The translations under genes were made by a program, and so were the position numbers. The notes beneath the pieces were generated by a model. It did no database searches and was not told where the DNA came from. It saw only the letters and a list, made by a program, of their open reading frames with translations. Source: an uncultured Acidobacteriota bacterium (GTDB lineage: Bacteria; Acidobacteriota; Blastocatellia; RBC074). From it: a stretch of DNA of 64,000 nt. This document shows, piece by piece, positions 21,885 to 38,383 of the stretch. Every line of letters starts with the position of its first letter. Within the stretch, counting starts at the first letter, position 1. The stretch covers positions 64,001 through 128,000 of the forward strand of contig CAWCKY010000007.1 of NCBI GenBank assembly GCA_963796275.1, read 5' to 3'.

Positions 21885-22194
21885 GGAACAACCAGGCGCA
21901 CGTTCTGCGAGACAGCAATAAGGTAACGAAAGGCTTACCTGAGCGAACTGCAGCCGTGTGTTGCAGACTGCGCCGTCCGTCACGCAGTTTGATCAGGCGG
22001 CTGAAACTATGTATGCTTTCGGCGCGGCGAGCGGCGAAGATGGATCCGAGGGTCTTTTTGAGATTGGGCTGAGGAGGATATTATCTTACGTAATCTTTCG
22101 CCCGACTTCGTGGACAATTATTTACCAAAATCTCACGTCGGACGTCCAAAAGTGAGATCGGCGATCAATCCGTTTGGGGCTGAATGGGATATTT

Positions 22195-23184
22195 ATGACA
22201 ACGGCTAATCACCGAGTCATCGAAACAAACGGCATTAAGATGCATATTGCAGACCAGGGCACGGGGCCGCTGGTCGTTTTGTGTCACGGGTTTCCGGAAC
22301 TGTGGTACTCCTGGCATCACCAATTACCGGCGCTGGCTGGTGCGGGCTACCGCGTTGTGGCGCCGGACCAGCGTGGTTACGGCCAGACCGAGGCGCCTGA
22401 AGCAATCGAAGCCTATGACCTCACACAGTTGACTGCTGATATCGTTGGCTTAGTCCAAGGATTGGGCGAGGAGCAGGCCGTTATCGTCGGGCACGACTGG
22501 GGGGCGCTGGTGGCCTGGCATTGCGCCCTGCTGCGGCCAGATATCTTCCGCGCCGTCGCTCTGCTGAGCGTTCCTTATCGTCAATGGTCCTGGACCGCCA
22601 TTCGCCCGACCGATGCAATGAGGAAGATGGCGGGCGAGAATCATTTTTATCAATTGTATTTTCAGGAACCTGGCAAGGCTGAGGCAGAGCTTGAAGCCGA
22701 CGTTCGCAAGAGCCTGATCATGCTTCTCTATTCGGCGTCGGGTGATCCTCCGCTAGAGAAGCGCTGGCGCTTTCTGTTCGGCAAGCACGAGACGCTGCTC
22801 GACAGCGGCACCTTGCCGGAGACACTGCCGTCGTGGTTGACGGCAGAGTATCTCGACTTATCCACACGCGAGTTCGAGAGGACCGGTTTTCGGGGTGGGC
22901 TCAACTGGTACCGGAACATTGACCGGGCGTGGGAACTAATGCGCTTCCTGAGCGGCGCGAAGATTCGGCAGCCATCGCTCTTCGCGGGCGGAGAGCTTGA
23001 TCCCTTGACTGCGATGAATAGGCAATACTTTGACGCCCTGGAACAGACCATGCCCGGCCTCAAGGAGAAAGTGTTGCTGCCGGGTGCGGGGCATTGGATA
23101 CAGCAGGAACGCCCCACCGAGATCAACCGGCTGCTGATTGATTTTCTGAACGGCTTGGATCAGCAAGGTTCGGGTAATTCGTAG
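22195..23184 (+). CDS. Epoxide hydrolase (EphA-like alpha/beta hydrolase)
   Basis: HGFPELWYSW, APDQRGYG, GHDWGA, GGLNWYRN and GHWIQQE motifs. Confidence 0.9.
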   Translation: MTTANHRVIETNGIKMHIADQGTGPLVVLCHGFPELWYSWHHQLPALAGAGYRVVAPDQRGYGQTEAPEAIEAYDLTQLTADIVGLVQGLGEEQAVIVGHDWGALVAWHCALLRPDIFRAVALLSVPYRQWSWTAIRPTDAMRKMAGENHFYQLYFQEPGKAEAELEADVRKSLIMLLYSASGDPPLEKRWRFLFGKHETLLDSGTLPETLPSWLTAEYLDLSTREFERTGFRGGLNWYRNIDRAWELMRFLSGAKIRQPSLFAGGELDPLTAMNRQYFDALEQTMPGLKEKVLLPGAGHWIQQERPTEINRLLIDFLNGLDQQGSGNS

Positions 23185-23290
23185 CAACTCCGTATGCGCG
23201 CGCGAGCCGGAGCAGCCAATTACTGCGTAGGCTCGCCGCGCACCGTAGCGGGCTTCAAGAAAACTATTGCCCTCAGAATCGCGCAACATA

Positions 23291-23812
23291 CTATTGTCTT
23301 TTGTAAACCATCTTCCACCTGTTACCCATAAATTCTTTGGCGATAGTAAGGGTCTTCCGGTCGTCGTCCATATCCCAGGTCTCTTTTAGCCCGCCGCCCG
23401 TAAGCTGAGTCGTAATGATCAGCTGCTTTCCGCTCCAACCAGCCTTTGATTTGAACGTGGAGCCATCTGGCTCGGTGTTGGTACTCTCCTTTCCATCGGT
23501 GGTCCAACGCAGTTCAATCACTCTAGGCAGTTCCTCGAAGCTTCTTATTAATTTCAGCTCCGGGTCCTTGTGATCGACCTCGTTCATTTCCTTCTCGGCT
23601 CCAGGCGGGATAGGTGGATCTCCAGCCTCTTTCGTCAATGACACAGCTTTCCATTTCCCGGTGAAGTCGGGTTTCCCATCTTTGTCCTGACCCGAACTCA
23701 GCGAGGAAGCAGAAGCAAGCGCAACTGATATCAGCAGAGCTAACGAGGCGGCTATCAGTGATAACGCGCCATGCTTCGCACTGAAACCGCTCTTTTTTTC
23801 AATCAGTCTCAT
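23291..23812 (-). CDS. Secreted hypothetical protein, lipocalin-like beta-barrel
   Basis: Signal peptide followed by KPDFTGKWK and alternating beta-strand patterns. Confidence 0.65.
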   Translation of the reverse strand: MRLIEKKSGFSAKHGALSLIAASLALLISVALASASSLSSGQDKDGKPDFTGKWKAVSLTKEAGDPPIPPGAEKEMNEVDHKDPELKLIRSFEELPRVIELRWTTDGKESTNTEPDGSTFKSKAGWSGKQLIITTQLTGGGLKETWDMDDDRKTLTIAKEFMGNRWKMVYKRQ

Positions 23813-23839
23813 AATAGGACGACGAGAACGATTCGCCTA

Positions 23840-23859
23840 TTATGCAATATATTGCATAA
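23840..23859. promoter_or_regulatory. Perfect 20-bp palindrome, candidate operator
   Basis: ttatgcaatatattgcataa equals its own reverse complement and lies 28 bp upstream of the 23812 start codon. Confidence 0.5.
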
Positions 23860-24466
23860 GTGCAAATCGTTCTCAGCGTCCATGACGATCCGGATGCGGC
23901 CGACGATCAGGCCCGTCTTTGGCTGCGATTGGATGAATCCCTCAACAATCCACAGAATGCAGCTCGATTGCGGGGCACAATTAGAGCGGGCATTAGAGAG
24001 GCGCAAGCGGATTCTGCATATAAACACATGCCACTGAGGCAATACATCGCGCATATCAAGAACGGATGCAGCCGAGAGATAAGGGATGCTCCGAGCGGCA
24101 TGAGCAGAAGGAGAGGGTAATATGGCTTGCAAGACCACGAGATATTCCCCTCACCCCCAACAAATCGGAGACACATTAAGACAGGATCAGATGGTGGACC
24201 TACTAAATGAAGCTTCTCGGCGAGGGCTAATCTCTACTATAACAATCGAGGGAAGGGAGTTGAAAAAGAGGGAAGACCCTACGAAACGGAAACCGATGCG
24301 CAAGGGGGTGGATCAATGGAAGCCGGGCATCCTGTAATGCCGTTTTATGTTCGCGCCGACCAATCGCTTTCACCAAGCCATTTGGCCCGCGAACATAAAC
24401 CATTATCAGATGACCTCGTGCTACTTGAAATATGAAAGAAATTACTACTTCTGAAAAGATTACTTC

Positions 24467-24552
24467 AAGTTGTGAATAACTCATCATCCAAAGAAATGCC
24501 GAGCTGCTTGAAAGAGAGCTTCAGAGCAGTAAGCAAATCTTTTTCACAGGGG
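24467..24552 (-). pseudogene. C-terminal fragment of a second immunity-like gene homolog
   Basis: Encodes PCEKDLLTALKLSFKQLGISLDDELFTT*, homologous to the end of the adjacent ORF (CEKGLLTALKFSFSRLGISLDGL*). Confidence 0.7.
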
Positions 24553-24559
24553 CCGTATG

Positions 24560-24938
24560 TCATAGGCCATCCAAAGAAATCCCAAGCCTGCTGAATGAAA
24601 ATTTCAGCGCAGTGAGTAATCCTTTTTCACAATGACTGTTTTGTGCCTTTTCAAGAAGAATGGCCAAGAAAACATCATCTGGATATCTATTCTCGCTGCC
24701 ATCTACCATACCTGCTAACTCTCCTGTGACAGTTTCCTGCATTTCATTGAAGCCAATCAACTCAGCAAGGCTATTCTTTACAGTATCAGTGTCACTCTCA
24801 GTCTCCTGACTTGGGTAAGAACCACGCGCACTTACCGTAATATTTAGAGCTAGAGAAGACACAAAGCGGATATTTCTGATCAGACGGCAAATCAGAATAG
24901 ATTTTTTTCAGCTCTGCTATTTTTTCAGCATCTAACAT
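24560..24938 (-). pseudogene. Putative toxin-immunity protein, frameshifted near its 5' end
   Basis: RBS aggag and ATG give MLDAEK..AELKKIYSDLPSDQK..IRFVSSLALNITVSARGSY...FNEMQETVTGEL...RYPDDVFLAIL. It lies directly after a toxin-tip relic. Confidence 0.55.
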
Positions 24939-24962
24939 CTGTCTCTCCTATTGAGTCTCATA

Positions 24963-25075
24963 TTAGTACGACGTTCTTGGAAGCGAATTAACGTCAACCC
25001 TCTCTCAGTCAGCACCTTGATCCTGGTGTTTCCTTGCATAATCGCGCCATCAGGCTTAACAATTAAAGGAGGGCC
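24963..25075 (-). pseudogene. Orphan toxin C-terminal fragment, ParB-like
   Basis: The reverse strand reads PPLIVKPDGAIMQGNTRIKVLTERG-(frameshift)-VDVNSLPRTSY*, resembling the G-x-x-R ParB-like tips of Rhs proteins. No start codon. Confidence 0.6.
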
Positions 25076-25192
25076 GAAGGTTTTCAACTTTGGCGTCATC
25101 GAGCTAGGGGTCGCTAAACAGCCGTGGGAGGCTGGTTTGGGCCGCCTCAGCGCTTACTTGGCCACAATGGGATTAGTAGATTTCCATCAGGA

Positions 25193-27361
25193 TTAGTTCT
25201 GCTTAAGCCGAAAGATTTTGAGTCCGAACCTAGAATCATTGCCATAAATCCGCTCCAAATAACGATGACTATAAACCTCGAAAGTCACCCAGTTCTGCAG
25301 TTGAATCTGGTAATCTGGCTCCTCGCTTTCGGCGGCTCTGACTCCTGGTACCGTATCTCCTGATGGACCACTGCCTTTATTGCCGATATAGGCCACAAAC
25401 CCGAAAAGGTTAGGATAATACATCACATAACGTACGCCCTGCTGCTTGAGCGCCAGATGAACTTCCTCCAGCGAAGTACAACGGCTCAAGAGTCTTCGCC
25501 ACACGACCGAATTCCAACCAGCGTCTGAGATGTGAGGATGTTCGATCCCATAATTCATCTGAGCTCCGATCATCAGCACCTTTGCATCAGGAGGAGAAAG
25601 GCGATTGATAAAATCCAGGGCACGATAATCTCCTCTGGAGGACATCAGAAATTCTCGGCGTGAGGTTCCTCCTGTAAGAAATGCAGGACCATTTTTGATG
25701 ATGTATTCATGACTACTTTTGTAAAGGACAACTCCTAGAGCAATACCAACAATGGTCAGAGGCAGCCATTTTCCGAGCTGGAAGCGATCCCCGATCCTTT
25801 CGCTGGCGGAATTCAACGCATATGCCGAAATGATCGTCAATGGGGGGTAAAGCGGAAGCAAGTAACGGTCTATCCAGGATGCCTGGACGGTCAAAAGGAA
25901 AAATCCGGCGCTGATTCCAAGCAACCAGACAATCCATCTCTGTTTTTTAGCCAGGATCAAGAATGGCAGAAACGCGAACAGATAGTTCGGGGTCAGACCC
26001 GGATCGGCAATGTTATATCTGGCTGATGCTGTCAAATATTCCCATATCCTTAGTGGATGACGTTCCGGCCTGCGCGAAGCGTACTTCGCCAGAATTTGTT
26101 CGATCTGAGCGACGATTTGCGGATCGGTTTCCCGCGCTCGATTAAAATGAACATCTATTCTCTCTTGATCTTCAGCAGTGAAGTATAGAGGGCGGCCGTT
26201 CTCAAAACGCGCGACCTCTCCCGTAAAAAAAGGATAGATCGGGTTGTGAAACCAGACGGCATTTTTGATGAGCCAGGGAGAAGTAACGGCGAGGGCAATA
26301 AGGATGAAGGCGAAACCATTCTTAATTATGTGAGAGAAAGAATCTCCTCTGCGCCAACACTCAACGCAAAACAATACTCCCAACATCAGCAGCCACAGGC
26401 CGGCAGTATACTTAATTCCCATGCTGAAACCTGCGAGCAGAGCCGAAGCAATCAACCAGCCGCGATTGGCAGTCGCTAGATAAGTTATCATTGCGCTGGT
26501 TGTGAGAAACAACATACCGGCGAGCGTGACGTCAACGCGAGATGTGACGGCTATCTCAATCACCATCCCGGCTGCGAAGAATCCAAGAAGCGCAATCATC
26601 CCTATCCGGCGAGAAAGAAATCGCGCACAAAAACCATACAATCCCAGGGCGCTGATGAGACCCAGTAAAACACTAAACAGTTTTGCCGCAATATCAGCCT
26701 TCGCCATCAGGCAAACGGCATAGATCATATGGACCAGAAAAGGCAGATTGCCTGAGAAGTTGTCCAGCACCGGGAACAATTGCCCGTGTTCGACAAATAC
26801 CTGTGTGACCGGCAAATGATAAATAGCCTCATCAGGAGAGTAGGGCGGAATTGCGGCTCGAAGGATAAGGAGCAAAGAGGCCAGACCGATTAGAGAGACT
26901 GCTATGAGCCGGGTCCAATTGGCAATGAGTTCTCGGAACAGTTCATTCAACAGCCCGGAAAGGCTGGAAATCTCACGGTAAGTAATTCCAAGCAGCAGTA
27001 TAATGAGCATCGCAACAGGCAACGGCCTGAGCCAACCAACTATCCCCAAACCGAAAACACATAGAGCGAGGCTGCCCGTCCCAAGCATGACCGAGTATGC
27101 CACTTCTTCCGCATGACCGACGAATTTCAATTTGAGAGCCCGGCTGATGCTGCTCCCAATGCAATAGGCGAGGGTGATAATAGATACCGCCAGCAGAAGG
27201 TCAAAAGCGCGGTCTAACAAGGCAAGAGAGCCGCGGTAATCAATCGTCGCCCGTGTGATTTGCAGATGCGCGTAAACCGCCGGTGCTGCAAACACGGCGA
27301 GAAGAAGGGAGAACCCCACTTTTCGTAAGGCTGGTTGTTTAAGGGTGATCGGGTAGCTCAT
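25193..27361 (-). CDS. Multi-TM GT-C-fold glycosyltransferase (ArnT/PMT-like)
   Basis: Many TM helices, loop motif PPYSPDEAIYHLP, GIKYT, PWLIKNAVWFHNPIYPF and RYLLP. Overlaps the upstream gene by 23 bp. Confidence 0.75.
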   Translation of the reverse strand: MSYPITLKQPALRKVGFSLLLAVFAAPAVYAHLQITRATIDYRGSLALLDRAFDLLLAVSIITLAYCIGSSISRALKLKFVGHAEEVAYSVMLGTGSLALCVFGLGIVGWLRPLPVAMLIILLLGITYREISSLSGLLNELFRELIANWTRLIAVSLIGLASLLLILRAAIPPYSPDEAIYHLPVTQVFVEHGQLFPVLDNFSGNLPFLVHMIYAVCLMAKADIAAKLFSVLLGLISALGLYGFCARFLSRRIGMIALLGFFAAGMVIEIAVTSRVDVTLAGMLFLTTSAMITYLATANRGWLIASALLAGFSMGIKYTAGLWLLMLGVLFCVECWRRGDSFSHIIKNGFAFILIALAVTSPWLIKNAVWFHNPIYPFFTGEVARFENGRPLYFTAEDQERIDVHFNRARETDPQIVAQIEQILAKYASRRPERHPLRIWEYLTASARYNIADPGLTPNYLFAFLPFLILAKKQRWIVWLLGISAGFFLLTVQASWIDRYLLPLYPPLTIISAYALNSASERIGDRFQLGKWLPLTIVGIALGVVLYKSSHEYIIKNGPAFLTGGTSRREFLMSSRGDYRALDFINRLSPPDAKVLMIGAQMNYGIEHPHISDAGWNSVVWRRLLSRCTSLEEVHLALKQQGVRYVMYYPNLFGFVAYIGNKGSGPSGDTVPGVRAAESEEPDYQIQLQNWVTFEVYSHRYLERIYGNDSRFGLKIFRLKQN

Positions 27362-29882
27362 TTTTCACAGTTGAAATAGAAGTTGAGTTCCGCAGCGCCG
27401 ACCACACGATGAAACATGCCACTAACACGAAAGCGATGGCCGAAATCAATAAGGCCGCGCGGTCGTACCATTGGCGGCTGAAAGTTAGCGTCACTGGCCC
27501 ATCCGCGAATGTCAGCATATAAAATGGCGTGGCTGCATAGATCGTTCCGCTGTCGGCCCTGTACCACTTCGGATGAAAAGTAGTCGCCACCAGGATTGGC
27601 GCCAGCACAGATGAATCAACGGCCTTATTTAATGGCGCGTAGTCCAGCTTGATCAAATTTTTTCCGGTTTCAATGGATACTGCGCCGGCCACAACAGGCG
27701 AACCATCTGGCTCGGCAAAGGTCGGGACTTTGTCTCGTTCAAGGACGCGACGGATGGCTATCCACTCATGGCGTATCTGGCTGGAGCTGTAATGATAGGT
27801 CGGGAATAACGAATTTACCCGCTCGCCAGGCACTTCTTTTTTGCGCTCGATGACTTCCAGTCTGGTGAACTCCGAACGGGCTGCATTGATCCTCTGGAAC
27901 AAGGGAGCATCGCTCGCTAAGGCGACCAGAAGCCTTTTCCCCGCGAACTCGCGCAACAATTTAAAGGCCCGGTTACAGTCGCCGCACTCATAGCTGTCGA
28001 GGACAACCGCTCCAAAAAGTTCAAGGTCCTGCAGTCGGTCAATCTTCCTCTCCGGCGTGCGCACCAACAGCACGTCGAACCACCCATCGGCGAATTGTTC
28101 CTCAGCCCATCTGATGAAGCTGGAATCGTTGCGCCGCCTCTCCTTGACCGTGAAGTCGCTCACCACCAGCGCCGGGCGATATGGCAATACGCGCGCTCTG
28201 GGTGGCGGACTCTCCTTCAGCTCAAACACGGTCCACGCGCCGAAATCCTGCCAACTGCCGATTGCGGGTTCCTGAGCCAGGCGGGCTTTGATCTGCGGCG
28301 TGTGGATGACGATGTAGCGCGTCCCAACCATCCTGGCTCGTTCCAAATGTTTCGATATGGGTTGCCTGATGAAGTCTAGGTCGTCGCCAAGAACCGAGCT
28401 GATCCCGAAGTGGTAAGGCGCACTCGAGAGCGTGTTAACTACAGGCAGGAAGAAGAGAGAGTTGACCGAAGCTTCGTGGTAGGCGATGCTCAGGGCCTCG
28501 TTCCCTTGAGCTGCCAAATAAGCGTTGATCGCCCTGCCGTCAAACCGCGCTCGCGTCTCGCGCACGGGAGGCACCTCAACCAGATAGCGTCCGCTGCGTC
28601 GCACCTTCGCAAAGTCTAAAATACTGGCTATCTCTGTGAACTTTTGGGGGGTGTAAAACGAGAACTGAATTTTCGTCCCCGGCGAAGTGAGGACTGTCAC
28701 GGCCAGTCCCCCTAAAGCTATGCCTGCTGTGTAGCGTACACGCTTCAATGAGAAGGCCTGATCCTTTCCGGGAAATTCACCAAGCAGTCTGGCCAATCCG
28801 CGGAAAGCCGCAGCCAGCGCGATACCGGCTAGAACAGCCAGCAGAAAGATCAGAATGGCCAGGAGTCGTTGAGCCTGTAAAGGAAACCAAGCAGGTGCTG
28901 CTGAAGAGAAGAACAGAGCCCCGGACAATAATCCGCAGCCGCCCAGATAGGACCACATAGCGGGAGACGGGTTCTTGCGCCAGATTGCAGCCCCGATCAC
29001 TGCCACAATGCAGTAGCCCCAAAGAACATTGGAGAAATAACGGCCGAGGTTGACCGGATTGGGGCGGGTGACGAAGTACTCGTACTCGCTGAACATTGGT
29101 GCCAGCCAGAAAAGCACCAGCAGAACACTAAACAGAACGGATGCCAGGCGGGCAAACAGCGTGTAGGCGGTTGGACGGAATTCACTGCTACCAATCGTAC
29201 GCAAACATTTGTACCCGTCGCAAAGAAGAGCCGCGGCCACAAAAAAGACCGCAGCAATGGCAGCGAAGAAGTTCGAAAGTATCGTAAGTGCCAACGCTAA
29301 CGCTGACAATCCAGGCTTCCACCAAGCCTGCGAGTCCGTTAGATAGATTGACAACCATAAGACCAGTAAGATGAAGCCTAATAATTGTGCGTAGAGTCCG
29401 AGCTGAAGAGTACTGAATAGATCGACACCCGAGTTCAGCCGCAGGTAGAAGCGCGAGTCGGTGAGGAGAAAAAGGGTGACGACTAGCGAACCGGAAGCAA
29501 TCAGTATGCTATGTCCTGCAATCTCCTTTGCCGCAATCCAAATTATAAATGGCAGCAAGAAGACAGAACTCAGAACGGCTAACTTAAATGCTGCACCGAA
29601 AGATAACAACTGGGAATGATAAAGCAAAGCGGCCAGCCAGTTCTGCACCGGCGGATAAAAGTTGGGGAACGGCATGCCACCAAGAACAGCATCCGTCCAG
29701 CCAAACGTGTCAGGAAAGATATGTGTTGAGTATAGCTCGGCTAGCGCTTGATGCGAAGATCCATCCCAGGCATCAGAGGGCAATGGGTTGAGGAGCTTTT
29801 GAGAAAGGCAGAGTAAAAGAAGGGTAATGCTACCTAATAGAGGGAGTAATAAGGTTGATCTTTTTGTTATTAGGCTCCACAA
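27339..29882 (-). CDS. Multi-TM GT-C-like membrane protein ('6-pyruvoyl-tetrahydropterin synthase-related' family; start uncertain)
   Basis: WDGSSH...FGWTDAVLGGMPFPNFYPP first-loop motif, many TM helices, a large soluble domain and a C-terminal TM. Confidence 0.72.
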   Translation of the reverse strand: MWSLITKRSTLLLPLLGSITLLLLCLSQKLLNPLPSDAWDGSSHQALAELYSTHIFPDTFGWTDAVLGGMPFPNFYPPVQNWLAALLYHSQLLSFGAAFKLAVLSSVFLLPFIIWIAAKEIAGHSILIASGSLVVTLFLLTDSRFYLRLNSGVDLFSTLQLGLYAQLLGFILLVLWLSIYLTDSQAWWKPGLSALALALTILSNFFAAIAAVFFVAAALLCDGYKCLRTIGSSEFRPTAYTLFARLASVLFSVLLVLFWLAPMFSEYEYFVTRPNPVNLGRYFSNVLWGYCIVAVIGAAIWRKNPSPAMWSYLGGCGLLSGALFFSSAAPAWFPLQAQRLLAILIFLLAVLAGIALAAAFRGLARLLGEFPGKDQAFSLKRVRYTAGIALGGLAVTVLTSPGTKIQFSFYTPQKFTEIASILDFAKVRRSGRYLVEVPPVRETRARFDGRAINAYLAAQGNEALSIAYHEASVNSLFFLPVVNTLSSAPYHFGISSVLGDDLDFIRQPISKHLERARMVGTRYIVIHTPQIKARLAQEPAIGSWQDFGAWTVFELKESPPPRARVLPYRPALVVSDFTVKERRRNDSSFIRWAEEQFADGWFDVLLVRTPERKIDRLQDLELFGAVVLDSYECGDCNRAFKLLREFAGKRLLVALASDAPLFQRINAARSEFTRLEVIERKKEVPGERVNSLFPTYHYSSSQIRHEWIAIRRVLERDKVPTFAEPDGSPVVAGAVSIETGKNLIKLDYAPLNKAVDSSVLAPILVATTFHPKWYRADSGTIYAATPFYMLTFADGPVTLTFSRQWYDRAALLISAIAFVLVACFIVWSALRNSTSISTVKNELPDHP

Positions 29883-29976
29883 GACAAGCAGTTCATCAGT
29901 AAGTAAATATAATATTGGTTCTACACAAGTTTACTCTTGCAAGAATATGTATACTAGGAAGCTACTTTACAGCAGC

Positions 29977-31024
29977 TTAGGCTGAAAGTTGCAACACCTT
30001 GTACCAGGTTTTTCCGCCGTCAACCGTCCGATAAACATTTCTTCGAGAAAGTACCCATCCATTCTGAGGATCCTGAAAAGTAAATTAATTCATAAAAGAC
30101 CTCATTATGTTTAATATTCATTTCCTTCCAACTTTTACCGCCATCGATAGTTTGCAACACAATGCCACCTTTGTTTTCAGACACATCAACCTCTGAACCC
30201 CATCCAACAGCCCATCCCAGCTTTGCGTCCACAAAATAGATAGTTTTTATTTTCCAACCTTCTCCTGGAATCGAAAAAGACAAAGGACGCCACCTTCTCC
30301 CACCATCTAGAGTCCTGTATAACTCTCCTCTTAGCCCCTTAACCCACCCCACGATTTTAGAAACAAAGAAAACATTCGTATACTCCGTTTCTTCTGACCC
30401 TACTTCGATTTCTTCCCAGCTTTCGCCACCGTTCTTAGTATGATACATAATTCCATATTCTCCACCTATCCATCCTTCGTTGGAATCGAGAAAGAAGAGG
30501 GAGTAAAAATGATAGTGTTCTTGTGTTGGAGGAGCATGCTCACGCCAAGTTTTTCCTCCATCAACAGTTCGCCAAATCGTGAAAGGCCCCAATACCCACC
30601 CGTGCAATTTGTCCGCGAATTTTAAGCCTACAGATGAAACGAAAGATGGGGTGTTTGCTCTAAGCCTATTCCAGGTCAGCCCACCATCTTCAGTTATCCA
30701 CAAATTTCCAAATTTATTTATTACCCAGCCATTATTTTCATCAACAAAGCTAAGTAGATCGAATCCATCAACAGTACCAGCAGCTATTTTATTCCACTTC
30801 CCACCTCCATCCTGAGTAACCAATAGATCACCCTCCTTCGACACGATCCACGCGTGATCCTTTCCTCTAAATTCAGCGCAAAGTGGTTGTGCGTAAGAGA
30901 CTTCCTGGTCAGCAGTATTTGCATCATTAGTCTTCACCGATTTTGGTTGCGATGATTCACAACACGATGAGATAGCGACGAAAACTAATAACACATACAA
31001 TAGGTGCTTCACTTTCTCTCTCAT
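29977..31024 (-). CDS. YCF48/BNR (Asp-box) beta-propeller lipoprotein, putative immunity protein; +1 frameshift at ~30070
   Basis: Lipoprotein-like signal (VFVAISSC) and repeated T-x-DGG-x-x-W boxes. Removing one G restores a final blade FSDPQNGWVLSRRNVYRTVDGGKTWYKVLQLSA* (stop 29977-29979). Confidence 0.8.
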
Positions 31025-31147
31025 TCAGGTGCTCCAAATAAACTTTGGCAGAATCTACGAATAACCCACATGGTAAAAGCTAAGGCTAGACTTCTCTACC
31101 TCTCGGGAGCATATCCAATTGTAGGTGATATGTATAACGGGTTCATA

Positions 31148-34100
31148 TCAATATCGGTATCTTGGTTTCGGTAATTTAGCACCCTCAATGCAGTTTAGAT
31201 AAACAATTGCGTCAACTTCGGAGTCTGATTTGACGTATTCATGTGGATTGGAGGCATGATGGGTATATTTTCCCGTCGCATGCGACAACTCATGAAGCCA
31301 AACTGCTGTTTGCATCTGAACACGATCTAGGTCCACAAGTTGCCTACCAACTCGTATGGTCGTTCCATCTCTTTGAGAGAAGTAACGAGCATATAACATG
31401 ATTTTTGCGTCCCCTCCTATTCCCGTTGTTTGCGCTGCGGCATTTGGATTACCACTGGGGATAAGCTGGTCAGGGGCATAGCCCGTATTCCCACTGTTCC
31501 TAATAGTATCCAGTAATTCAGCTGGATCTGGAAACTTATTCGACCCGATCGCCTCTCTACATCTCCTAGCTAGATCATTGTTACCAGATAATATGGATTT
31601 TGCATTGAGGTATCCCATATAATACTCATGATGAGTTGGTATCTTATTTCGTTGTGTCCATGGTGCACGTTGTTGCAAACTACCCAAGGACCCTGAGAAA
31701 AAGTTTGAAATGGTTACTTTATACTGTATACTCCCATAGATATCGATCCCCCAATCATTCTCCTTCCAGTAGTCTTTCGCATTGTCAGTATAATCAGGTG
31801 TAATTGACAATCCAGGAACCGAGGTACTCGCAATCCCAGTTGGGGTCGCAATTTGATCGATACTGGCTGACCCATGTGATATCAATCCGATAGTCTGCTC
31901 ACATGGCGTTTGTATACCATCCAAATAACAGTCCAATCCCATACTGCCAGCAGGATTGCTATAACCGTAAGGAGAGGCAGACCCTCCTGAATTGTCATTG
32001 TAATAACTCTCAGGAGGGGGAGATCCACTTGACCCACCTCCGCTATTCCAAGCATCGATCTCACCTTGCGAAGCCGCTTTTACTAATCCGCCTAGAGGAT
32101 CGACAGAGTAAACATTGTAGCTAGAGGCGTTTCCGCTCTTCGCAATCCAGTTATAAGGGTCACGGTGGCTAAATGTCACTCCAGGAATTGAGAATATCGA
32201 TGTTTGGTCATACAATCTGGTTGCGATTAACTCACCGCCCGCATAAACATAGAGCTGTCTATAAGTTGAATATATCAGATGCTGGGTATCAATACAATAA
32301 CAACGTGTAATAAGATACTGCCCATTTTCCAAACTCCAAGGGATACTCCCAACAAACAACGCTTCTGAAAGAACCGTTGACCTGACATAGTACGCAGCGT
32401 GACCCGTCTGAATGCTACCATCTGGACTCCTATGCCTTGAAGTTTTAGAAACCAGGTTCCCGTCGCCGTCGAACTGATAATCATCTGTGCTAGAGTAGAA
32501 CTGACTGTCGTGGGGGAGTTTGGTAATTCTTACCATTCTTCCATCCGCATTCCAATCAAGAGTCTCGTCAAAGAAAATTGGACCACCAGGGGCAGTATAC
32601 CTCTTGATATCACCTGCGACATCGTACTGCCAGTTGTGCTTTATATCTTGCACGTTCGTGGCTCGATCATTTATATAGGCAGCAGAAAACGTAGCTTGGT
32701 TGATATACCAATATCTTCCCGACCGGCTAGTCAGATGATTGAATGGATCATAAGCATAGTCTTGTATCAACTGTTGAGGCGCGGGACTCCCTAACCCGGC
32801 GGCTATGGCTGAACGAGCCTGAGTCACACGCCCGACATGGTCATAACTACGAGACTGGTCCAAAGTACGATTGTAGAGCCCCTGAACAGTTTTGAGCTGC
32901 CCGTCGAGGTCGTAACCATAATTTGCGCCAACAACGCTTTGATCGTTTATGCTGGATATCAACATCCGATTGTTATACTGCGAGGTAATAGTGTAGCCAC
33001 CATAACCGTATAAGATTTGTTTTGGTGCTCCCCATGCCCTATACTTGATGTCCGCAATGTAATCGGTAACCCCGTCGCGCGGCGTGCCTGATACTTTGGT
33101 CACCATTCCAGATATATCGTGAGAATAGTCAATCGTATCGCCTGTTGGGGTCAAGATACGTTTCAGCCCTCCTCCGAGGTTGTAGTCGTAACCGACCGAA
33201 TATGTGTTCAGGTATGACTGTCCCGATCCTCCATAGATGTAACGTGAGAGGTCATCAATTACTCGGGTCTCACTTGTCATTCGGCTTAGCGTGTCATAGG
33301 TATATGTCACTATGCCAGGCCCATCATCCATTACAGTGCGATTCCCTGCTTCGTCATATGCAAAGGTGACATTTGGCGTCTGGGCAACACCAGATGGGGC
33401 ACCATAGATAATACTCGTCACCAAGTGACGATTGTTGTAACCGTATGTCGCACTCCCTCCACGCGGATCTGTTGACCTCATTAAAGTATCATTGGGGTAA
33501 TATTCATAGATATCGTATGGAGTCTCGCTCTGCGGATTCCCAACATATTTCGGCAACTGCCGCGTCTTCAGCCTCCCATGCCCGTCATAAACCATCACCG
33601 TATTTTGCGACACTCCTGAAGCATTATCTATCACGTTAATATTGGTAACCTGACTACGTGTATTGTAAGTATACGTCGTCGTCGAGTAAACGTCATTCCC
33701 ATTCGACCCGCCGTAGTGGTAGGTTCGCTCTTTCCGCACCCTCCCCAGAATATCGTATTCCTGCTCCCGCCGTCTCCCCATTTCATCCGTGTAGGTAACC
33801 AACTGACCTCCAGCACATCCGCATCCAGCGTAGCTAATTGATTTGGTGGTTAAGTCCTGGTTCGTCAAGACCGTCGGCCTCCCCTGCCAATCGTAAACCT
33901 GATAAGTCTGCCCCGTTCCCCCCGCATCATCCCCCGCCGCCTGCCAGTCTGCATCTATCTCTGCCCAATTATTCGGCCGCGCCAATCGTCCCATCTCATC
34001 ATAGTGATTTAGTTTCGCCCGATACTGCCCGACGCTTGCCGGATGGTCTGCCAACTCTGCTCGCACACGACCATGACCATCGAAGCGTGTAGCTGAATAG

Positions 34101-37100
34101 AACTCTGTCGCCAGATCTTTGATCGTGGTATAGGACTCGACGAACCACTGGTCCGGAGTGTATTCGTAGCGCGTGTAAGCTTCGTTGACCTGATTGGTGA
34201 CTCGCTCAAGACGCCCAATCGCGTCATAGGTTCGCGTTAATACCGCTCCCTTTGGATCCTCCGTCTGTGTAACAGCGCCGAAGTCAAAGTTGTATTTGAC
34301 CGTCGAGAAGAAATTATCTGGATCGGTCACTTTCGTCTGATAGGCAAATGTGTTGTGATTCACTCCATCCGAGAAGGAATCGGTGTAACTGATGCTTGTC
34401 TGATGATTGAGCGGATCGCGGCTGAAGATGACTGAACCTGAGGTGTTATAACCCGTCTTGTATTCCGAGACCTTGGCCCCATTGTTGGGATCGGTTACAT
34501 CCCAGCGGCGCATGCTGTTCAGGTTCCCGCGCCCCTGCACGAATAACGGACCGTAATTGGTCGTATCATGCCTTACTGGCGGGCCTTGATGCTCCTGATA
34601 TGTCCCGCCCAGATCATAGCGATAGTCCACCTTCGAGAAGAGATTGTTATTGCCATCGTAGAGGAACTGCGCGCTGGGCAGGCCGATGATTCGCCGATTG
34701 GTGTAGACTGTGTTCAGGTTGTAATCCCTGTGATTGTGCTGCAGCACCGTTGTCCCGTTGACATCATACTGATAGACATCGATCGGCAAACCGAAGCTGG
34801 TGTAACTGATCGTGCTCCGACTGCGATTGCCTGCATCGTCGTAAACATTGGTCTCAACCACACGCGGATTGAGCTGGTATGAGATTGCAGTGTTATCTTG
34901 CGTCCACTGGAGAGAGGTCCATTTCTTCCTCGCATTGCCTGACCATATCTCGGTTTGTGTCGTCAGTCCTCGTTGCCAACTAGTGGTTGCGAAGAATTCT
35001 CTTTGGAGCGTCCCATCCGGCGAGGTCACATACCCTTCAGTCCCATTCTGGATGGCAGGACCATAGGTAGTGTCCGTTGCCGACCACGATCCTCCGGCCC
35101 AATGCTCGATCGCCCAATCCGTCCGCATCGTGAAGCGCGGGCAATCAGATTGCGGCGCGCTGCTGTTAGCAGGCAGGTTGTAGATAGTGTATGCCCGCTC
35201 GACGTAGTCTGCGGGGAACGACTGCGGGTTCGAGTCCTCAGGTGCATATTTCCTGATCGCCTTGACCTGGGCATAGGTGTTGTATTCGAACTTGTAGATC
35301 GACCCATCGGCCAATCCGACCTGAGTCAGCACCGAGACACTGGAGCCATTGGCCACTCCCTGCAGACTGAGTCCGGGGAAATTGGTCTGGATCACCTGAG
35401 TGCCGTAGCTGAAGGTTGCCCAGGTGTGCGTCTGCCCGTTCCAGCTCTGGGTGATCGAGTTGAGGTGGAAGAAGGAGTCGTAATTGAAAGTGATCACCCT
35501 GTTCAGAGTATCGACAATCGTGCTGATCTCGGCGCCGCCAGACCCGGCGCCATAGTTGATCGTGATGTAATTGCCGTTGCGATCCTTGATCTGAGTTGGT
35601 TTGTACTCGCCGCCTTTGAATTCGAACCTCAACTGTGTGCCATTGGTCGGACGCAAGTTCATTGAGTTGTCGGCTGGATTGTAGGTCAAGTGCAGATATG
35701 ACGAATCGACCGATTCGAAGACATTCTGACTGACCTCTCGCAATTCCACAGCCTGGCCAGAGGGCATAATCAAAAGGTAAGCATTCTTCCCGGCTTGCGG
35801 GTTGAAGAAGTAGCGCTGAACAATCGGGAAACCCAGCCGGAAGCCAGGAGCCGGATTGCCTGAATCGAGGTCGAAGTGAATGGCGCTCCCAGTATTCAAT
35901 AAAACCTTCGTCTTCCCGGCCTTATCCCAACTGGCGCTCCCTCCATAGAGTGTGAAGGCCATTCCATTGATTGTGCTTCCCTCCAGCCCGACCAGATTCG
36001 CAGGTACTTCCAATCGCACCCACCGTCCCTCCGGAGGCAATGGCCCCATATATCTCAGACTCGCCGTTCCCTCCACTGCCCCAGGAAAATTATTAGCCCC
36101 CCAATAAGCGCGGTGATCCCAGCTACCATCATTCCATTGCAACATGATCGAGCTTGGCTTGTTGATCGGATCAAGATGGACATAAGCATATAGTCTATCA
36201 CCAGCATTGACCTGCAAGGTCTGGGTTGCCCCATAGAAGTAGTGTTGATGGACGCCTGATGCAACAGCGGATTGGTGATAAGCCGTCCCCGAATATGGAC
36301 TTGGGGTAGCGCCGACCCAGGTCCAACTATCTCCTCCAACGGTTGCTCCTGCCGGCAACGAATCATCGAACCACACTATATCTCCAGCATTGGTAGCCTT
36401 GCCTGCCTTATCCCAATGCGCCATCCCACCATCGAGCGTGAAAGCCATCCCATTGATCGTTTTCCCTGCCAACCCCACCTCGCTTGACAGCACTTCCAGC
36501 TTCACCCATCCTTCTGTCGCTGGTAACGGCCCCATATACTTCCGGCTTGCTGTTCCATTTGTTCCAAATACGATGTTGTTGGCTCCCCAATAGGCTCGAT
36601 GCTCCCAACTACCGTTTTCATGCCACTGAAGCATAATCTCATTGGGAAGATTCGCTGGGTCGAGATAGACATAAGTATAAAGTTTCTCCGCCGGAGCAGT
36701 GTTACTAATCTGCAGGGTCCGGGTTGCCTCATAGAAGAAGTATTGATGGAAACCCGCTGCAGCAGCGGATTGATGGTAAGCCGTCCCTGAATACGGACCG
36801 AAGCTAGCGCCAACCCACTTCCAACTGTCTCCTCCGTTGGCCTGTAGAATAGCACCTGCCGGCAGTGAATCATCGAACCAGATGATATCTCCGCTGCTGT
36901 TGGCCTTGCCTGAGTTATCCCAATAGGCTCTGTTGACGCCCGATGCCCAGAGCGTGAAGGCCATCCCACTGACTGTCTTGCCCTCCAATCCAACTTGGCT
37001 TGCAGACACTTCCAAACGCACCCATTGTCCTGCTGCAGGCAATGGCCCCATATTGCGCCGGCTGTTTATCCCATCAGTTCCGAAACTGAGTGCGTTGGTT

Positions 37101-37717
37101 CCCCAATAAGCCCGATGCTCCCAGCTTCCGTTCTCAAACCACTGTAGCATGACCTCGCCGGGAGGATTGGCAGGATCGAGATAGACGTAACTATAGAGTT
37201 TATCCCCGGCATTGATCTGCAGGGTCTGGGTGGCTCCATAGAAATTGTGCACATGATAACCTGCTACGAGATTGGATGGATGATAAAACGACCCCGAATA
37301 TGGATTCAGGCCAATAGAAGGACTTATCCACGTCCAACTATCTCCTCCTTCACCCATTGGCACCGCTCCTGCCGGCAATGAATCTTCGACCCACGCCGCA
37401 TCGTCAACGACTACTTCAGGACCTACTCTTGTATAGAGCAGAGAGTTAAGTGAAAGCCCGAGGTTTACATCCAATCCGGCACGTCCGGGAAGATTGAGTA
37501 GAGAAAGCCCCCAGTTGAAATTGCGCGAAAGCAGGTCTTCTCCCGATGCGCCCTTGCGATTTCGAGGATCGAGCTGTGCCATGGCGAGATCGGCTTCCGT
37601 TTGAAACATCAGGCTTGCAGCAGCCTTTGTCGCGCTCGGAGACAACATAACAGGCGAATCAGAGACCGCTCGCTCGGCGCCGTTGATCGAAATATCCAGT
37701 GATGGGTTGTTCAGCAT
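31148..37717 (-). CDS. Rhs/YD-repeat protein with three tandem N-terminal modules and a C-terminal HExxH metallopeptidase-like domain
   Basis: YD repeats (YDAIGRL, YDEMGRL, YDWQGRP, YDILGRV, YDGHGRL, YDEAGNR), core end YSVDPLG (~32095), and WLHELSHATG (HELSH at 31280-31294). Confidence 0.9.
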   Translation of the reverse strand: MLNNPSLDISINGAERAVSDSPVMLSPSATKAAASLMFQTEADLAMAQLDPRNRKGASGEDLLSRNFNWGLSLLNLPGRAGLDVNLGLSLNSLLYTRVGPEVVVDDAAWVEDSLPAGAVPMGEGGDSWTWISPSIGLNPYSGSFYHPSNLVAGYHVHNFYGATQTLQINAGDKLYSYVYLDPANPPGEVMLQWFENGSWEHRAYWGTNALSFGTDGINSRRNMGPLPAAGQWVRLEVSASQVGLEGKTVSGMAFTLWASGVNRAYWDNSGKANSSGDIIWFDDSLPAGAILQANGGDSWKWVGASFGPYSGTAYHQSAAAAGFHQYFFYEATRTLQISNTAPAEKLYTYVYLDPANLPNEIMLQWHENGSWEHRAYWGANNIVFGTNGTASRKYMGPLPATEGWVKLEVLSSEVGLAGKTINGMAFTLDGGMAHWDKAGKATNAGDIVWFDDSLPAGATVGGDSWTWVGATPSPYSGTAYHQSAVASGVHQHYFYGATQTLQVNAGDRLYAYVHLDPINKPSSIMLQWNDGSWDHRAYWGANNFPGAVEGTASLRYMGPLPPEGRWVRLEVPANLVGLEGSTINGMAFTLYGGSASWDKAGKTKVLLNTGSAIHFDLDSGNPAPGFRLGFPIVQRYFFNPQAGKNAYLLIMPSGQAVELREVSQNVFESVDSSYLHLTYNPADNSMNLRPTNGTQLRFEFKGGEYKPTQIKDRNGNYITINYGAGSGGAEISTIVDTLNRVITFNYDSFFHLNSITQSWNGQTHTWATFSYGTQVIQTNFPGLSLQGVANGSSVSVLTQVGLADGSIYKFEYNTYAQVKAIRKYAPEDSNPQSFPADYVERAYTIYNLPANSSAPQSDCPRFTMRTDWAIEHWAGGSWSATDTTYGPAIQNGTEGYVTSPDGTLQREFFATTSWQRGLTTQTEIWSGNARKKWTSLQWTQDNTAISYQLNPRVVETNVYDDAGNRSRSTISYTSFGLPIDVYQYDVNGTTVLQHNHRDYNLNTVYTNRRIIGLPSAQFLYDGNNNLFSKVDYRYDLGGTYQEHQGPPVRHDTTNYGPLFVQGRGNLNSMRRWDVTDPNNGAKVSEYKTGYNTSGSVIFSRDPLNHQTSISYTDSFSDGVNHNTFAYQTKVTDPDNFFSTVKYNFDFGAVTQTEDPKGAVLTRTYDAIGRLERVTNQVNEAYTRYEYTPDQWFVESYTTIKDLATEFYSATRFDGHGRVRAELADHPASVGQYRAKLNHYDEMGRLARPNNWAEIDADWQAAGDDAGGTGQTYQVYDWQGRPTVLTNQDLTTKSISYAGCGCAGGQLVTYTDEMGRRREQEYDILGRVRKERTYHYGGSNGNDVYSTTTYTYNTRSQVTNINVIDNASGVSQNTVMVYDGHGRLKTRQLPKYVGNPQSETPYDIYEYYPNDTLMRSTDPRGGSATYGYNNRHLVTSIIYGAPSGVAQTPNVTFAYDEAGNRTVMDDGPGIVTYTYDTLSRMTSETRVIDDLSRYIYGGSGQSYLNTYSVGYDYNLGGGLKRILTPTGDTIDYSHDISGMVTKVSGTPRDGVTDYIADIKYRAWGAPKQILYGYGGYTITSQYNNRMLISSINDQSVVGANYGYDLDGQLKTVQGLYNRTLDQSRSYDHVGRVTQARSAIAAGLGSPAPQQLIQDYAYDPFNHLTSRSGRYWYINQATFSAAYINDRATNVQDIKHNWQYDVAGDIKRYTAPGGPIFFDETLDWNADGRMVRITKLPHDSQFYSSTDDYQFDGDGNLVSKTSRHRSPDGSIQTGHAAYYVRSTVLSEALFVGSIPWSLENGQYLITRCYCIDTQHLIYSTYRQLYVYAGGELIATRLYDQTSIFSIPGVTFSHRDPYNWIAKSGNASSYNVYSVDPLGGLVKAASQGEIDAWNSGGGSSGSPPPESYYNDNSGGSASPYGYSNPAGSMGLDCYLDGIQTPCEQTIGLISHGSASIDQIATPTGIASTSVPGLSITPDYTDNAKDYWKENDWGIDIYGSIQYKVTISNFFSGSLGSLQQRAPWTQRNKIPTHHEYYMGYLNAKSILSGNNDLARRCREAIGSNKFPDPAELLDTIRNSGNTGYAPDQLIPSGNPNAAAQTTGIGGDAKIMLYARYFSQRDGTTIRVGRQLVDLDRVQMQTAVWLHELSHATGKYTHHASNPHEYVKSDSEVDAIVYLNCIEGAKLPKPRYRY
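35912..37405 (-). repeat. Three tandem ~160-170-aa domain repeats within the Rhs gene
   Basis: Units at ~37405-36890, 36889-36383 and 36382-35912. Each has W-x-[DE]DSLPAGA...GGDSW...YV[YH]LDP...MLQW...W[ED]HRAYWG...MGPLP...WV[RK]LEV...GMAFTL...WD-x-x-GK. Confidence 0.92.
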
Positions 37718-38383
37718 CCGCCAGAGATCGCTTCCCGAGCCGTCAATAGGGTATCCGCCGCCTTGACTTGAGAGGATAGCGTGTTAATAAAGTGCTTTGT
37801 TTGCGTCCGATAATGCATCTAATGTAACCGATATATGTATAATAGACAGTTACATGGATGTTGGGTTGCTGCTGACGGCCGTCACTCCAGGATTGCCGCG
37901 GCTGGCCATGCCACAAAGGTCAACCGGAGATCGACGCCGATTGCCACAACGCTAGGTCTTTAAGCTGGGTTCCGTTAGAAACTGATTTTGTTGCAAAAGT
38001 GGCGTCACTCCACGAAAAAATAGAATTAAATTTTGAAAGATTCCCATTAAATCAATCACGCCATTTCCTCGGCTCCCGACACAAACAATCTATCTTATTT
38101 TCGCTGCCTTTTGGTCAAGGCAATGGATCCAACGTTAGCCTAGACTAGAGAGGAGAGAACTATCTATAAACGCCGCGCAATTTTTTTTATGCTTTCACTG
38201 TTCGTCGTTGGAAGTACCGATTCTTCAGGAAAACCAGTACCGAAACACAAGCCGCGACAGACGGTGGTGGCACACTACCGGCTCACCTAAAGGATACCGA
38301 CTTTCGCCGCTCGTCGCGCCGGCAGCGGATCAAATTCTATACAGCAGGAAGTTCTGTATATCCGTGCTTCCGCCGCCAGGTTC

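Follow-up and report, generated by a model that had tools for sequence, protein, structure and literature searches.

Within a 64,000-nucleotide stretch of DNA from an uncultured soil acidobacterium of the Blastocatellia (contig CAWCKY010000007.1, positions 64,001 to 128,000; hereafter, the window), a large gene for an Rhs/YD-repeat protein is followed by genes for a lipoprotein and for two membrane glycosyltransferases of the GT-C type, which we denote GT-C1 and GT-C2. The co-directional run laid out in a preliminary description of this DNA holds: all four minus-strand open reading frames (ORFs) are real, and those of GT-C1 and GT-C2 overlap by 23 bp (27339-27361). The four genes are as follows:

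31148..37717, minus strand: Rhs/YD-repeat polymorphic toxin, an ORF of 2189 amino acids (aa) with Pfam and NCBIfam repeat matches
30020..31024, minus strand: BNR/YCF48-like beta-propeller lipoprotein, 334 aa, Pfam PSII_BNR, lipobox ...AISSC
27339..29882, minus strand: GT-C1, membrane glycosyltransferase-like protein, 847 aa, TTG start, fold predicted with AlphaFold2 (AF2)
25193..27361, minus strand: GT-C2, PMT_2-family membrane glycosyltransferase, 722 aa, Pfam PMT_2

The G+C fraction is 0.45 in the C-terminal tip of the Rhs gene, 0.42 in the propeller gene, 0.54 in GT-C1, 0.50 in GT-C2 and 0.54 in the window as a whole.

A word-indexed search yielded 154 relatives of GT-C1; all those with a source name come from Pyrinomonadaceae, Blastocatellia or Acidobacteriota. 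The DNA around these relatives amounted to 54 loci from species-representative genomes and 79 from metagenomes (numbered with the prefix L), and 133 loci, the window included, were compared by ORF calling and BLAST clustering; L133, in which there is no GT-C1 ORF, was dropped. An Rhs gene lies upstream of GT-C1 on the same strand in 36 of the 133 loci, mostly with zero to two small ORFs in between. The share is 27 of 84 among the loci whose upstream DNA reaches 3 kb and 23 of 66 among those where it reaches 5 kb; one additional linked case, L046, was detected by tblastn only. On a quick maximum-likelihood tree of 105 GT-C1 proteins, the linkage changes state only six times. The window belongs to a clade of 28 proteins (SH-aLRT 99), of which 21 are Rhs-linked, six come with upstream sequence shorter than 2 kb and one, L003, is an exception, with small ORFs only in its 3.5 kb of upstream sequence. 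Thus, of the 22 loci of this clade in which the upstream sequence is long enough to tell, 21 have Rhs directly upstream of GT-C1, and the pattern that the preliminary description had named as a sign of chance insertion, GT-C orthologs usually occurring without Rhs, is not what we observe there. Linked proteins elsewhere on the tree are those of L043, L046, L047, L102, L086, L087, L006 and L027.

The genes beyond the Rhs-to-GT-C stretch vary between the linked loci, and their borders share no recurrent mobility gene, with integrases in L003 and L008 only. Across 14 linked loci, the pairwise identities of the Rhs core and of GT-C1 are correlated (r = 0.73), a value reached in none of 2000 permutations; after removal of the window's subclade, the correlation is 0.60 and is reached in four of 2000. 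The closest relatives with upstream DNA, with 67-74% identity in GT-C1, are L055, L056, L057, L060, L061, L063, L064 and L066. All eight have the order Rhs (43-55% identity), variable ORF, GT-C1, and GT-C2 comes next in every contig that extends past GT-C1. Two of these loci contain gene remnants. In L061, the region between intact genes (L061:5400-8600) holds fragments derived from GT-C1 (aa 211-431), the Rhs core (aa 1365-1622) and the propeller (aa 286-319), and in L060 a 5' fragment of GT-C1 (aa 7-80; L060:5507-5737) lies between the Rhs/immunity genes and the intact GT-C1. We read these pieces as scars of block-wise duplication or replacement, in which Rhs, the immunity gene and the 5' part of GT-C moved together.

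Other clades of GT-C1 keep different company, namely, GT-C2, a GFO/IDH/MocA oxidoreductase, a hexapeptide acetyltransferase, a GT2 glycosyltransferase and a DegT aminotransferase. The set that includes the GFO/IDH/MocA, DegT and hexapeptide acetyltransferase genes has the appearance of a lipid-linked amino-sugar route. Further neighbors in these clades are a GT2-methyltransferase fusion, a sigma-54 activator together with an M50 peptidase, genes of the polyketide synthase/nonribosomal peptide synthetase type, and additional polytopic membrane proteins.

The GT-C1 protein of the window matches no Pfam or NCBIfam model, and PF10131 is weakly touched by 5 of 23 relatives (best E 1e-4). A search of the PDB with a GT-C1 profile returned a chance FliQ row only, that is, no sequence similarity to solved structures. 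Structure prediction, which the preliminary description had proposed as a check, did produce a GT-C fold: the AlphaFold model computed from 23 sequences (pLDDT 79.7, pTM 0.80) matched AftA, AglB, STT3, PglB, AftD, ArnT and DPY19 in Foldseek with probability 1.0 and E ~1e-6. With VIA-align, residues 1-558 gave the highest Z score with STT3 (6s7o_A; 26.0, 467 residues aligned), followed by AglB (24.1), PglB (21.6), AftA (21.3), DPY19 (18.9), PMT (18.6) and ArnT (18.0), and the top 18 rows are all STT3, AglB or PglB (Z 21.5-26). The match takes in the membrane domain and the beginning of the periplasmic one, residues 560-810 being barely covered by the fold searches; toward the C-terminus, a large periplasmic domain and a terminal helix are predicted as well. 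As modeled, GT-C1 has a clear GT-C fold that is nearest to STT3, AglB and PglB.

None of the 105 family members that reach 700 aa contains WWDxG, the motif by which oligosaccharyltransferases bind the sequon, and for this reason we do not classify GT-C1 as an oligosaccharyltransferase. The window protein also has no DxD motif within its initial 120 residues, which include the first loop. Six residues, D40, H44, R339, E436, E470 and D603, are invariant across all 36 Rhs-linked copies, which, therefore, look like working enzymes. D40, which is part of the AWDGSGH stretch, is additionally found in all 6 outgroup members and in 54 of the 63 other members, D58 being less constant; D40 is a putative catalytic residue.

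The Rhs assignment of the 31148-37717 product is based on profile comparisons. Pfam RHS_repeat matches at 1e-8 (35.8 bits; cut-off 22) and NCBIfam YD_repeat_2x at 28.9 bits (cut-off 15.8). A PDB sequence search with the single Rhs core matched nothing, and a profile of 17 core sequences matched 13 distinct solved sequences at E <= 0.01, 11 of these named Rhs or type VI secretion system (T6SS) Rhs effectors and two teneurin-like (best 7q97, 1.3e-24). By these matches, the protein belongs to the Rhs/YD-repeat proteins. Its recognizable parts, from the N-terminus, are:

37403..37594, minus strand: first shell motif of the Rhs subfamily, aa 42-105, ...LLSRNFNWGLSLLNLPGRAGLD..., with tblastn matches
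35888..37411, minus strand: tandem array of three ~170-aa repeats (aa 103-610), inserted in a loop that directly follows the shell motif
32084..32101, minus strand: DPLGGL (aa 1873-1878), variant of the DPxGL motif for cleavage in the C-terminal part of Rhs
31901..31942, minus strand: conserved Cys-x-LDG-x-P-x-x-C stretch that follows DPLGGL and a Gly/Ser/Tyr-rich linker
31148..31870, minus strand: polymorphic tip, the last ~240 aa, with HELSH at 31280-31294 (aa 2142-2146)

The shell motif is 44-63% identical in all but one of 30 long relatives (L179, 34%), and the number of residues ahead of it ranges from 25 to 953 in these relatives and is 41 in the window. Among the tandem repeats, the middle one shares 61% and 66% identity with the outer two and served as the reference row of an alignment of such modules (53-66% identity). 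The modules probably adopt a beta-sandwich fold, to judge from an AF2 model of modest confidence (pLDDT 65) that weakly resembles CBM28, CBM61, laminin LN and discoidin-type domains (TM 0.34-0.45). These resemblances offer a lead and no proof of sugar binding. In L064, the modules precede the shell motif (L064:2131-3228), in the window they follow it, and this genome has further copies in Rhs-like genes elsewhere (C6:1748296, C6:1759234, C4:83585); the module is one that moves between positions. The same genome contains a second Rhs locus (C4:82000-100000; L182), consisting of a truncated 672-aa Rhs with one module, an IS21-type transposase with its IstB partner and a 2042-aa Rhs.

At the autoproteolysis motif PxxxxDPxGL, the window has ...SVDPLGGL..., and its close relatives share DPLG but lack Leu at the canonical position; the canonical DPxGL is found in L006, L022 and L034. 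The layout DPLG...C.LDG.P..C is common to GT-C-linked and unlinked Rhs relatives. Many of the Rhs orthologs start with a hydrophobic signal-like segment, which the window protein lacks even though its 2189-aa frame is intact (37403-37717); no relic of a signal-peptide coding sequence was found in the 666 bp upstream (37718-38383). The genome encodes the T6SS sheath protein TssC on another contig, and nothing ties it to the window Rhs. Neither this protein nor the products of the two ORFs upstream match PAAR or VgrG in Pfam, and we reject a T6SS-cargo role given that no PAAR or VgrG is nearby and that the orthologs carry signal peptides instead. The gene upstream of Rhs (38384-41119, minus strand) encodes a 911-aa DUF6055 protein that passes the NCBIfam Svx/AvrXca model (639 bits; cut-off 625), with a metalloprotease-type sub-hit.

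The homology of related Rhs proteins ends near aa 1950-2016, with the exception of L061, where it continues to aa 2182. HExxH motifs occur in 14 of 32 tips, 38-148 residues from the C-terminus (38-69 in 13 of the 14). Searched against Pfam at E <= 5, the tip, a single N-terminal module, the initial 105 residues and two small downstream ORFs matched no model, and an Atlas search with the tip gave sub-threshold metalloprotease leads only (0.83-0.85). The window tip is a putative zincin-type metallopeptidase toxin. In three GT-C-free loci of the same family (L170, L176 and L174), the tips look, by eye, like peptidoglycan hydrolases, with M23-like H..H and a lytic-transglycosylase-like stretch.

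In six of the eight multi-member tip groups, all members have one common downstream ORF cluster. One of these groups is that of the window and L061, the sole other locus with the window's tip, where the same propeller is encoded at 60% identity. The propeller lipoprotein is thus a candidate cognate immunity protein. It matches Pfam PSII_BNR at 3.8e-27, and its type is found behind three different tip groups. We considered whether it could be Ycf48 itself and rejected this assignment (118 bits against the NCBIfam equivalog cut-off of 326); it belongs to the wider BNR/PSII_BNR family. Compared with its counterpart in L061 (L061:4324-5343), the window copy has a shorter C-terminus, lacking about 25 residues of the last blade (the 30020-30100 end).

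A hydrophobic N-terminus, of the signal or lipoprotein type, is present in at least 13 of 29 immunity-like ORFs. The N-terminal extensions of nine linked Rhs relatives contain S8 subtilase with prodomain (L008, L043, L034), F5/8 type C (L008), PA14 and GLEYA (L070), LamG-like and PKD (L104), FG-GAP (L024, L047), fn3 and Big_5 (L064) and DUF4214 (L070, L129) domains. The subtilase is complete, prodomain and catalytic part, and fused ahead of the Rhs shell in all three cases (L008:1629-3971, L043:510-3365, L034:12804-14528). The extracytoplasmic action assumed in the preliminary description is, therefore, supported: signal peptides and N-terminal domains of lectin type are found in the relatives' Rhs, and the products of many immunity ORFs look exported. 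Its suggestion of lectin-like Rhs modules draws, for the window itself, on a weak model, although PA14, F5/8 type C and LamG domains are present at the same end of the relatives' proteins.

GT-C2 matches Pfam PMT_2 (PF13231) over residues 217-365 (4.7e-9; 37.1 bits, gathering threshold 26.1), and a PDB sequence search with it found nothing. It is encoded directly downstream of GT-C1, with 57-61% identity, in L055-L062, and adjoins GT-C1 in the reverse order in other clades. In L055, L056, L057, L060, L061 and L062, GT-C2 is followed by a protein of about 250 aa that, by BLASTP, clusters with Pfam Glycos_transf_2 proteins. No trace of this GT2 gene was found at 22000-26000 of the window, where its place is taken by the following feature:

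23881..25192, no strand assigned: low-GC (0.47) decayed stretch

The GT2 donor gene may have been lost from the window copy. A 100-aa ORF in the decayed stretch (24560-24862) has its last 21 residues duplicated just downstream (24486-24548), a 124-bp piece (24293-24416) is 90% identical to DNA beside the truncated Rhs on contig C4, and a 380-bp piece (23881-24258) is ~80-84% identical to at least six other copies in the genome. Nothing at 23-25 kb matches Rhs or proteins of the related loci by blastx; the orphan toxin tip seen here in the preliminary description was not found, and "relics", its term for immunity remnants, is a fair word for what are decayed repeat fragments. Copies of the 380-bp piece, read on the plus strand, are located at C4:106843, C1:39496, C1:72189, C1:86000, C3:1140419 and C3:1157314. 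The full copies of this repeated element, which is truncated in the window, consist of a pair of genes for proteins of 247 and 198 aa with no Pfam match, and for several copies another Rhs gene is located tens of kb away or nearer.

We lean modestly towards the view that the linkage of Rhs with GT-C1 is kept by selection and that the GT-C is an optional accessory altering an extracytoplasmic sugar coat, because the two genes have stayed adjacent and in the same orientation through deep divergence, their flanks have changed and their sequences have diverged in step. The periplasmic face of the membrane is where GT-C enzymes act. The system would then be a Sec-type, T6SS-independent Rhs cassette: the shell bears an exchangeable tip that acts on the envelope, and a propeller lipoprotein, itself exported, gives immunity. 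It would have become stably coupled, in one Blastocatellia lineage, to a module for glycosylation on the periplasmic face. GT-C1 would move a sugar from a polyprenyl-phosphate donor onto an extracytoplasmic acceptor; the window's sub-lineage would have gained GT-C2, and relatives a GT2 donor synthase as well. The genes, the fold, the conserved but one-sided linkage, the co-divergence and the export of the parts are observations, and from these we infer the enzyme activity, donor, acceptor and effect on competition. As to what the coat is, our first choice, a tentative one, is a surface glycan or glycoprotein of the producer that is met by the lectin-type Rhs heads or by incoming toxins and would serve self-protection or recognition; that the coat is on the exported Rhs or the immunity protein itself appears slightly less probable still. 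The window copy may be partly disabled, given that its Rhs is devoid of a signal peptide and GT2 is lost.

Zhang et al. 2012 (PMC3482391) cataloged Sec/T2SS-type, T6SS-independent Rhs/YD-repeat polymorphic toxin-immunity cassettes. As far as the excerpted parts of that catalog go, the present loci resemble its cassettes in the YD-repeat shell, the conserved pre-toxin region, the swappable tip with a co-varying downstream immunity ORF, the variable adhesin- or lectin-type N-terminal domains and the signal peptides of orthologs. They differ from the cassettes in those parts in that a GT-C gene is a conserved third component; in the 12 covered, of 36 matching places of the catalog, glycosyltransferases figure only as toxin domains (nucleotide-sugar fold), with no linked GT-C. 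The nearest parallel in logic comes from Pseudomonas aeruginosa, where, according to excerpts of two reports, the membrane glycosyltransferases TfpO and TfpW accompany only some alleles of a polymorphic exported pilin, and the pilin modification is protective, not essential (10.1101/2020.04.19.049825, 10.1101/150227). Like these, to the extent of the excerpts, GT-C1 would be a one-sided accessory glycosyltransferase beside a polymorphic surface protein. Unlike them, its proposed partner is an Rhs toxin and no pilin, and GT-C1 represents another family, one without a Pfam model and, in this case, known from genes alone. In that bacterium, the pilin gene is followed immediately by the tfp gene.

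O-antigen glucosylation by phage Gtr proteins (GtrA/GtrB/Gtr-type) and lipid A modification by ArnC/ArnT are three-part periplasmic systems, in which a GT2 enzyme loads polyprenyl phosphate with a sugar and a GT-C transfers it to an envelope acceptor on the periplasmic face; the effect of phage Gtr is self-exclusion. Relatives of the window similarly combine GT2, GT-C2 and GT-C1, and ArnT is among the structural matches (Z 18). The window differs from such systems in having no adjoining GT2 and in the link to a toxin cassette rather than a prophage; no flippase was identified, and no search aimed specifically at GtrA or ArnE/F-type proteins was made. STT3, AglB and PglB are the best structural matches (Z 26.0, 24.1 and 21.6, respectively), and the GT-C1 family departs from them in lacking WWDxG and in a context that suggests single-sugar donors. 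That the preliminary description knew of no described Rhs system of this organization agrees with our full-text literature search, to which subscription journals were outside the scope and which found no publication linking Rhs with a GT-C or a membrane glycosyltransferase.

Several observations weigh against a selected partnership. Metagenome contigs make up the majority of the related loci, which include near-duplicates (L055/56, L104/105, L086/87, L063/66, L109/110, L129/130). The distribution is strongly one-sided. In the 87 genomes of the window's order, which comprises one family, the Rhs core (aa 600-1950) is present in 47 at 1e-30 and GT-C1 in two at 1e-20, and in a sample of 401 genomes of the class, the Rhs subfamily is present in 137 (1e-60) and GT-C1 in 19, with the class-wide searches scoring only the two best candidates per genome. 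These class tallies include unpublished genomes (G296 in both counts; G231, G357 and G185 in the Rhs count), which enter into no further result. Of 19 Rhs loci fetched from the window's own family, 13 have downstream ORFs, and GT-C1 is in none of these 13. No feature of Rhs separates linked from unlinked proteins, the DPLG/Cys-rich layout and HExxH tips occurring in both. In L002 and L086/L087, an Rhs stub alone abuts an intact GT-C1. Without its signal peptide, the supposed partner may never reach the periplasm in this bacterium. The intergenic gaps have a median of ~120 bp and contain no signal above chance, so that there is no evidence of co-transcription: in a scan for promoters and terminators, counts did not exceed those in shuffled sequence, with no site in the Rhs-propeller or propeller-GT-C1 gaps, and for 26800-31600 of the window no RNA run was listed, only one soil-metagenome DNA run with a fifth of the words. 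Finally, Rhs loci are recombination hot spots and could hold neighbors together without a shared function.

This last point leads to a serious rival explanation that we consider possible rather than probable, in which genes for envelope-glycan GT-Cs hitch-hike in the recombination-prone 3' flank of Rhs, with no common function; they would be inherited and exchanged along with the Rhs cassette, the Rhs core and GT-C1 acting as homology arms. The scarcity of GT-C beside a common Rhs subfamily, the plain glycan-synthesis clusters in which other GT-C1 clades reside, the intact GT-C1 genes next to truncated Rhs stubs and the fragments in L060 and L061, taken as recombination across the whole block, all fit this explanation. 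So does the ancestry of the window's block. On a tree of 37 Rhs proteins, the window forms a fully supported group with L061, L055/56, L064, L057 and L060, which nests among GT-C-free Rhs genes of its own family, whereas the window's GT-C1 groups with copies that lack GT-C2 and whose Rhs branch outside the own-family group; because of this conflict between the trees, the GT-C block was probably acquired horizontally. What speaks against mere hitch-hiking is that the informative clade members, all but one, keep adjacency and orientation at ~40-50% identity with the outer flanks changed, that Rhs and GT-C1 co-diverge where a chance neighbor would be expected to drift away, and that mobility genes are not recurrent at the borders.

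If the two genes do share a function, the STT3-like GT-C could be a dedicated sugar-writing partner of the Sec-exported Rhs that either glycosylates Rhs or the immunity protein or recodes the surface glycan of the producer so that kin are spared by the lectin-type Rhs heads; we put this forward tentatively. The narrower version, a protein glycosyltransferase dedicated to the Sec-exported Rhs or its lipoprotein immunity partner in the manner of TfpO/TfpW, strikes us as rather unlikely. The nearest solved folds are indeed protein glycosyltransferases, a neighboring gene codes for an exported candidate substrate, DPLG is followed by a linker rich in Gly, Ser, Tyr and Asn, and the one-sided pattern matches that of the pilin accessory enzymes as excerpted. 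The complete lack of WWDxG points the other way, as do the absence of an acceptor feature specific to linked Rhs, the GT2 of relatives, which suggests single-sugar polyprenyl-phosphate donors, the glycan- or glycolipid-like surroundings of other clades and the missing signal peptide of the window Rhs. CdiB is encoded downstream of cdiA-cdiI in Burkholderia-type loci, and GT-C1, which is conserved behind the variable module of tip and immunity gene, might by analogy be a needed partner in export, translocation or maturation of the Rhs family. We reject this role, which is close to refuted, on the distribution: Rhs orthologs (44-49% identity) with signal peptides are present in 46 of the 86 other genomes of the family and GT-C1 in one, and GT-C1 retains enzyme-type conserved residues. 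From the same one-sided distribution it follows that the GT-C is an optional accessory with no obligatory role in export or maturation.

The analysis defines a large GT-C family that has no Pfam model, an oligosaccharyltransferase-like predicted fold and a patchy distribution in Blastocatellia. Should its linkage with Rhs amount only to hitch-hiking, these loci would be a clear example of an Rhs flank ferrying cargo genes between lineages. If the GT-C is instead the dedicated sugar-writing partner tentatively put forward above, this would be the first glycan-coupled polymorphic toxin system. To our knowledge, how Sec-exported, T6SS-independent Rhs toxins recognize and enter neighboring diderm cells is not known, and the GT-C would in that case provide a handle on how such toxins find and enter their targets. 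Because the GT-C stays beside the toxins through long divergence, lectin-type heads are present on the Rhs proteins of relatives and export is a feature of the immunity proteins, it becomes a testable idea that surface sugars decide which cells are hit and which are spared, or that the toxin itself is sugar-coated.

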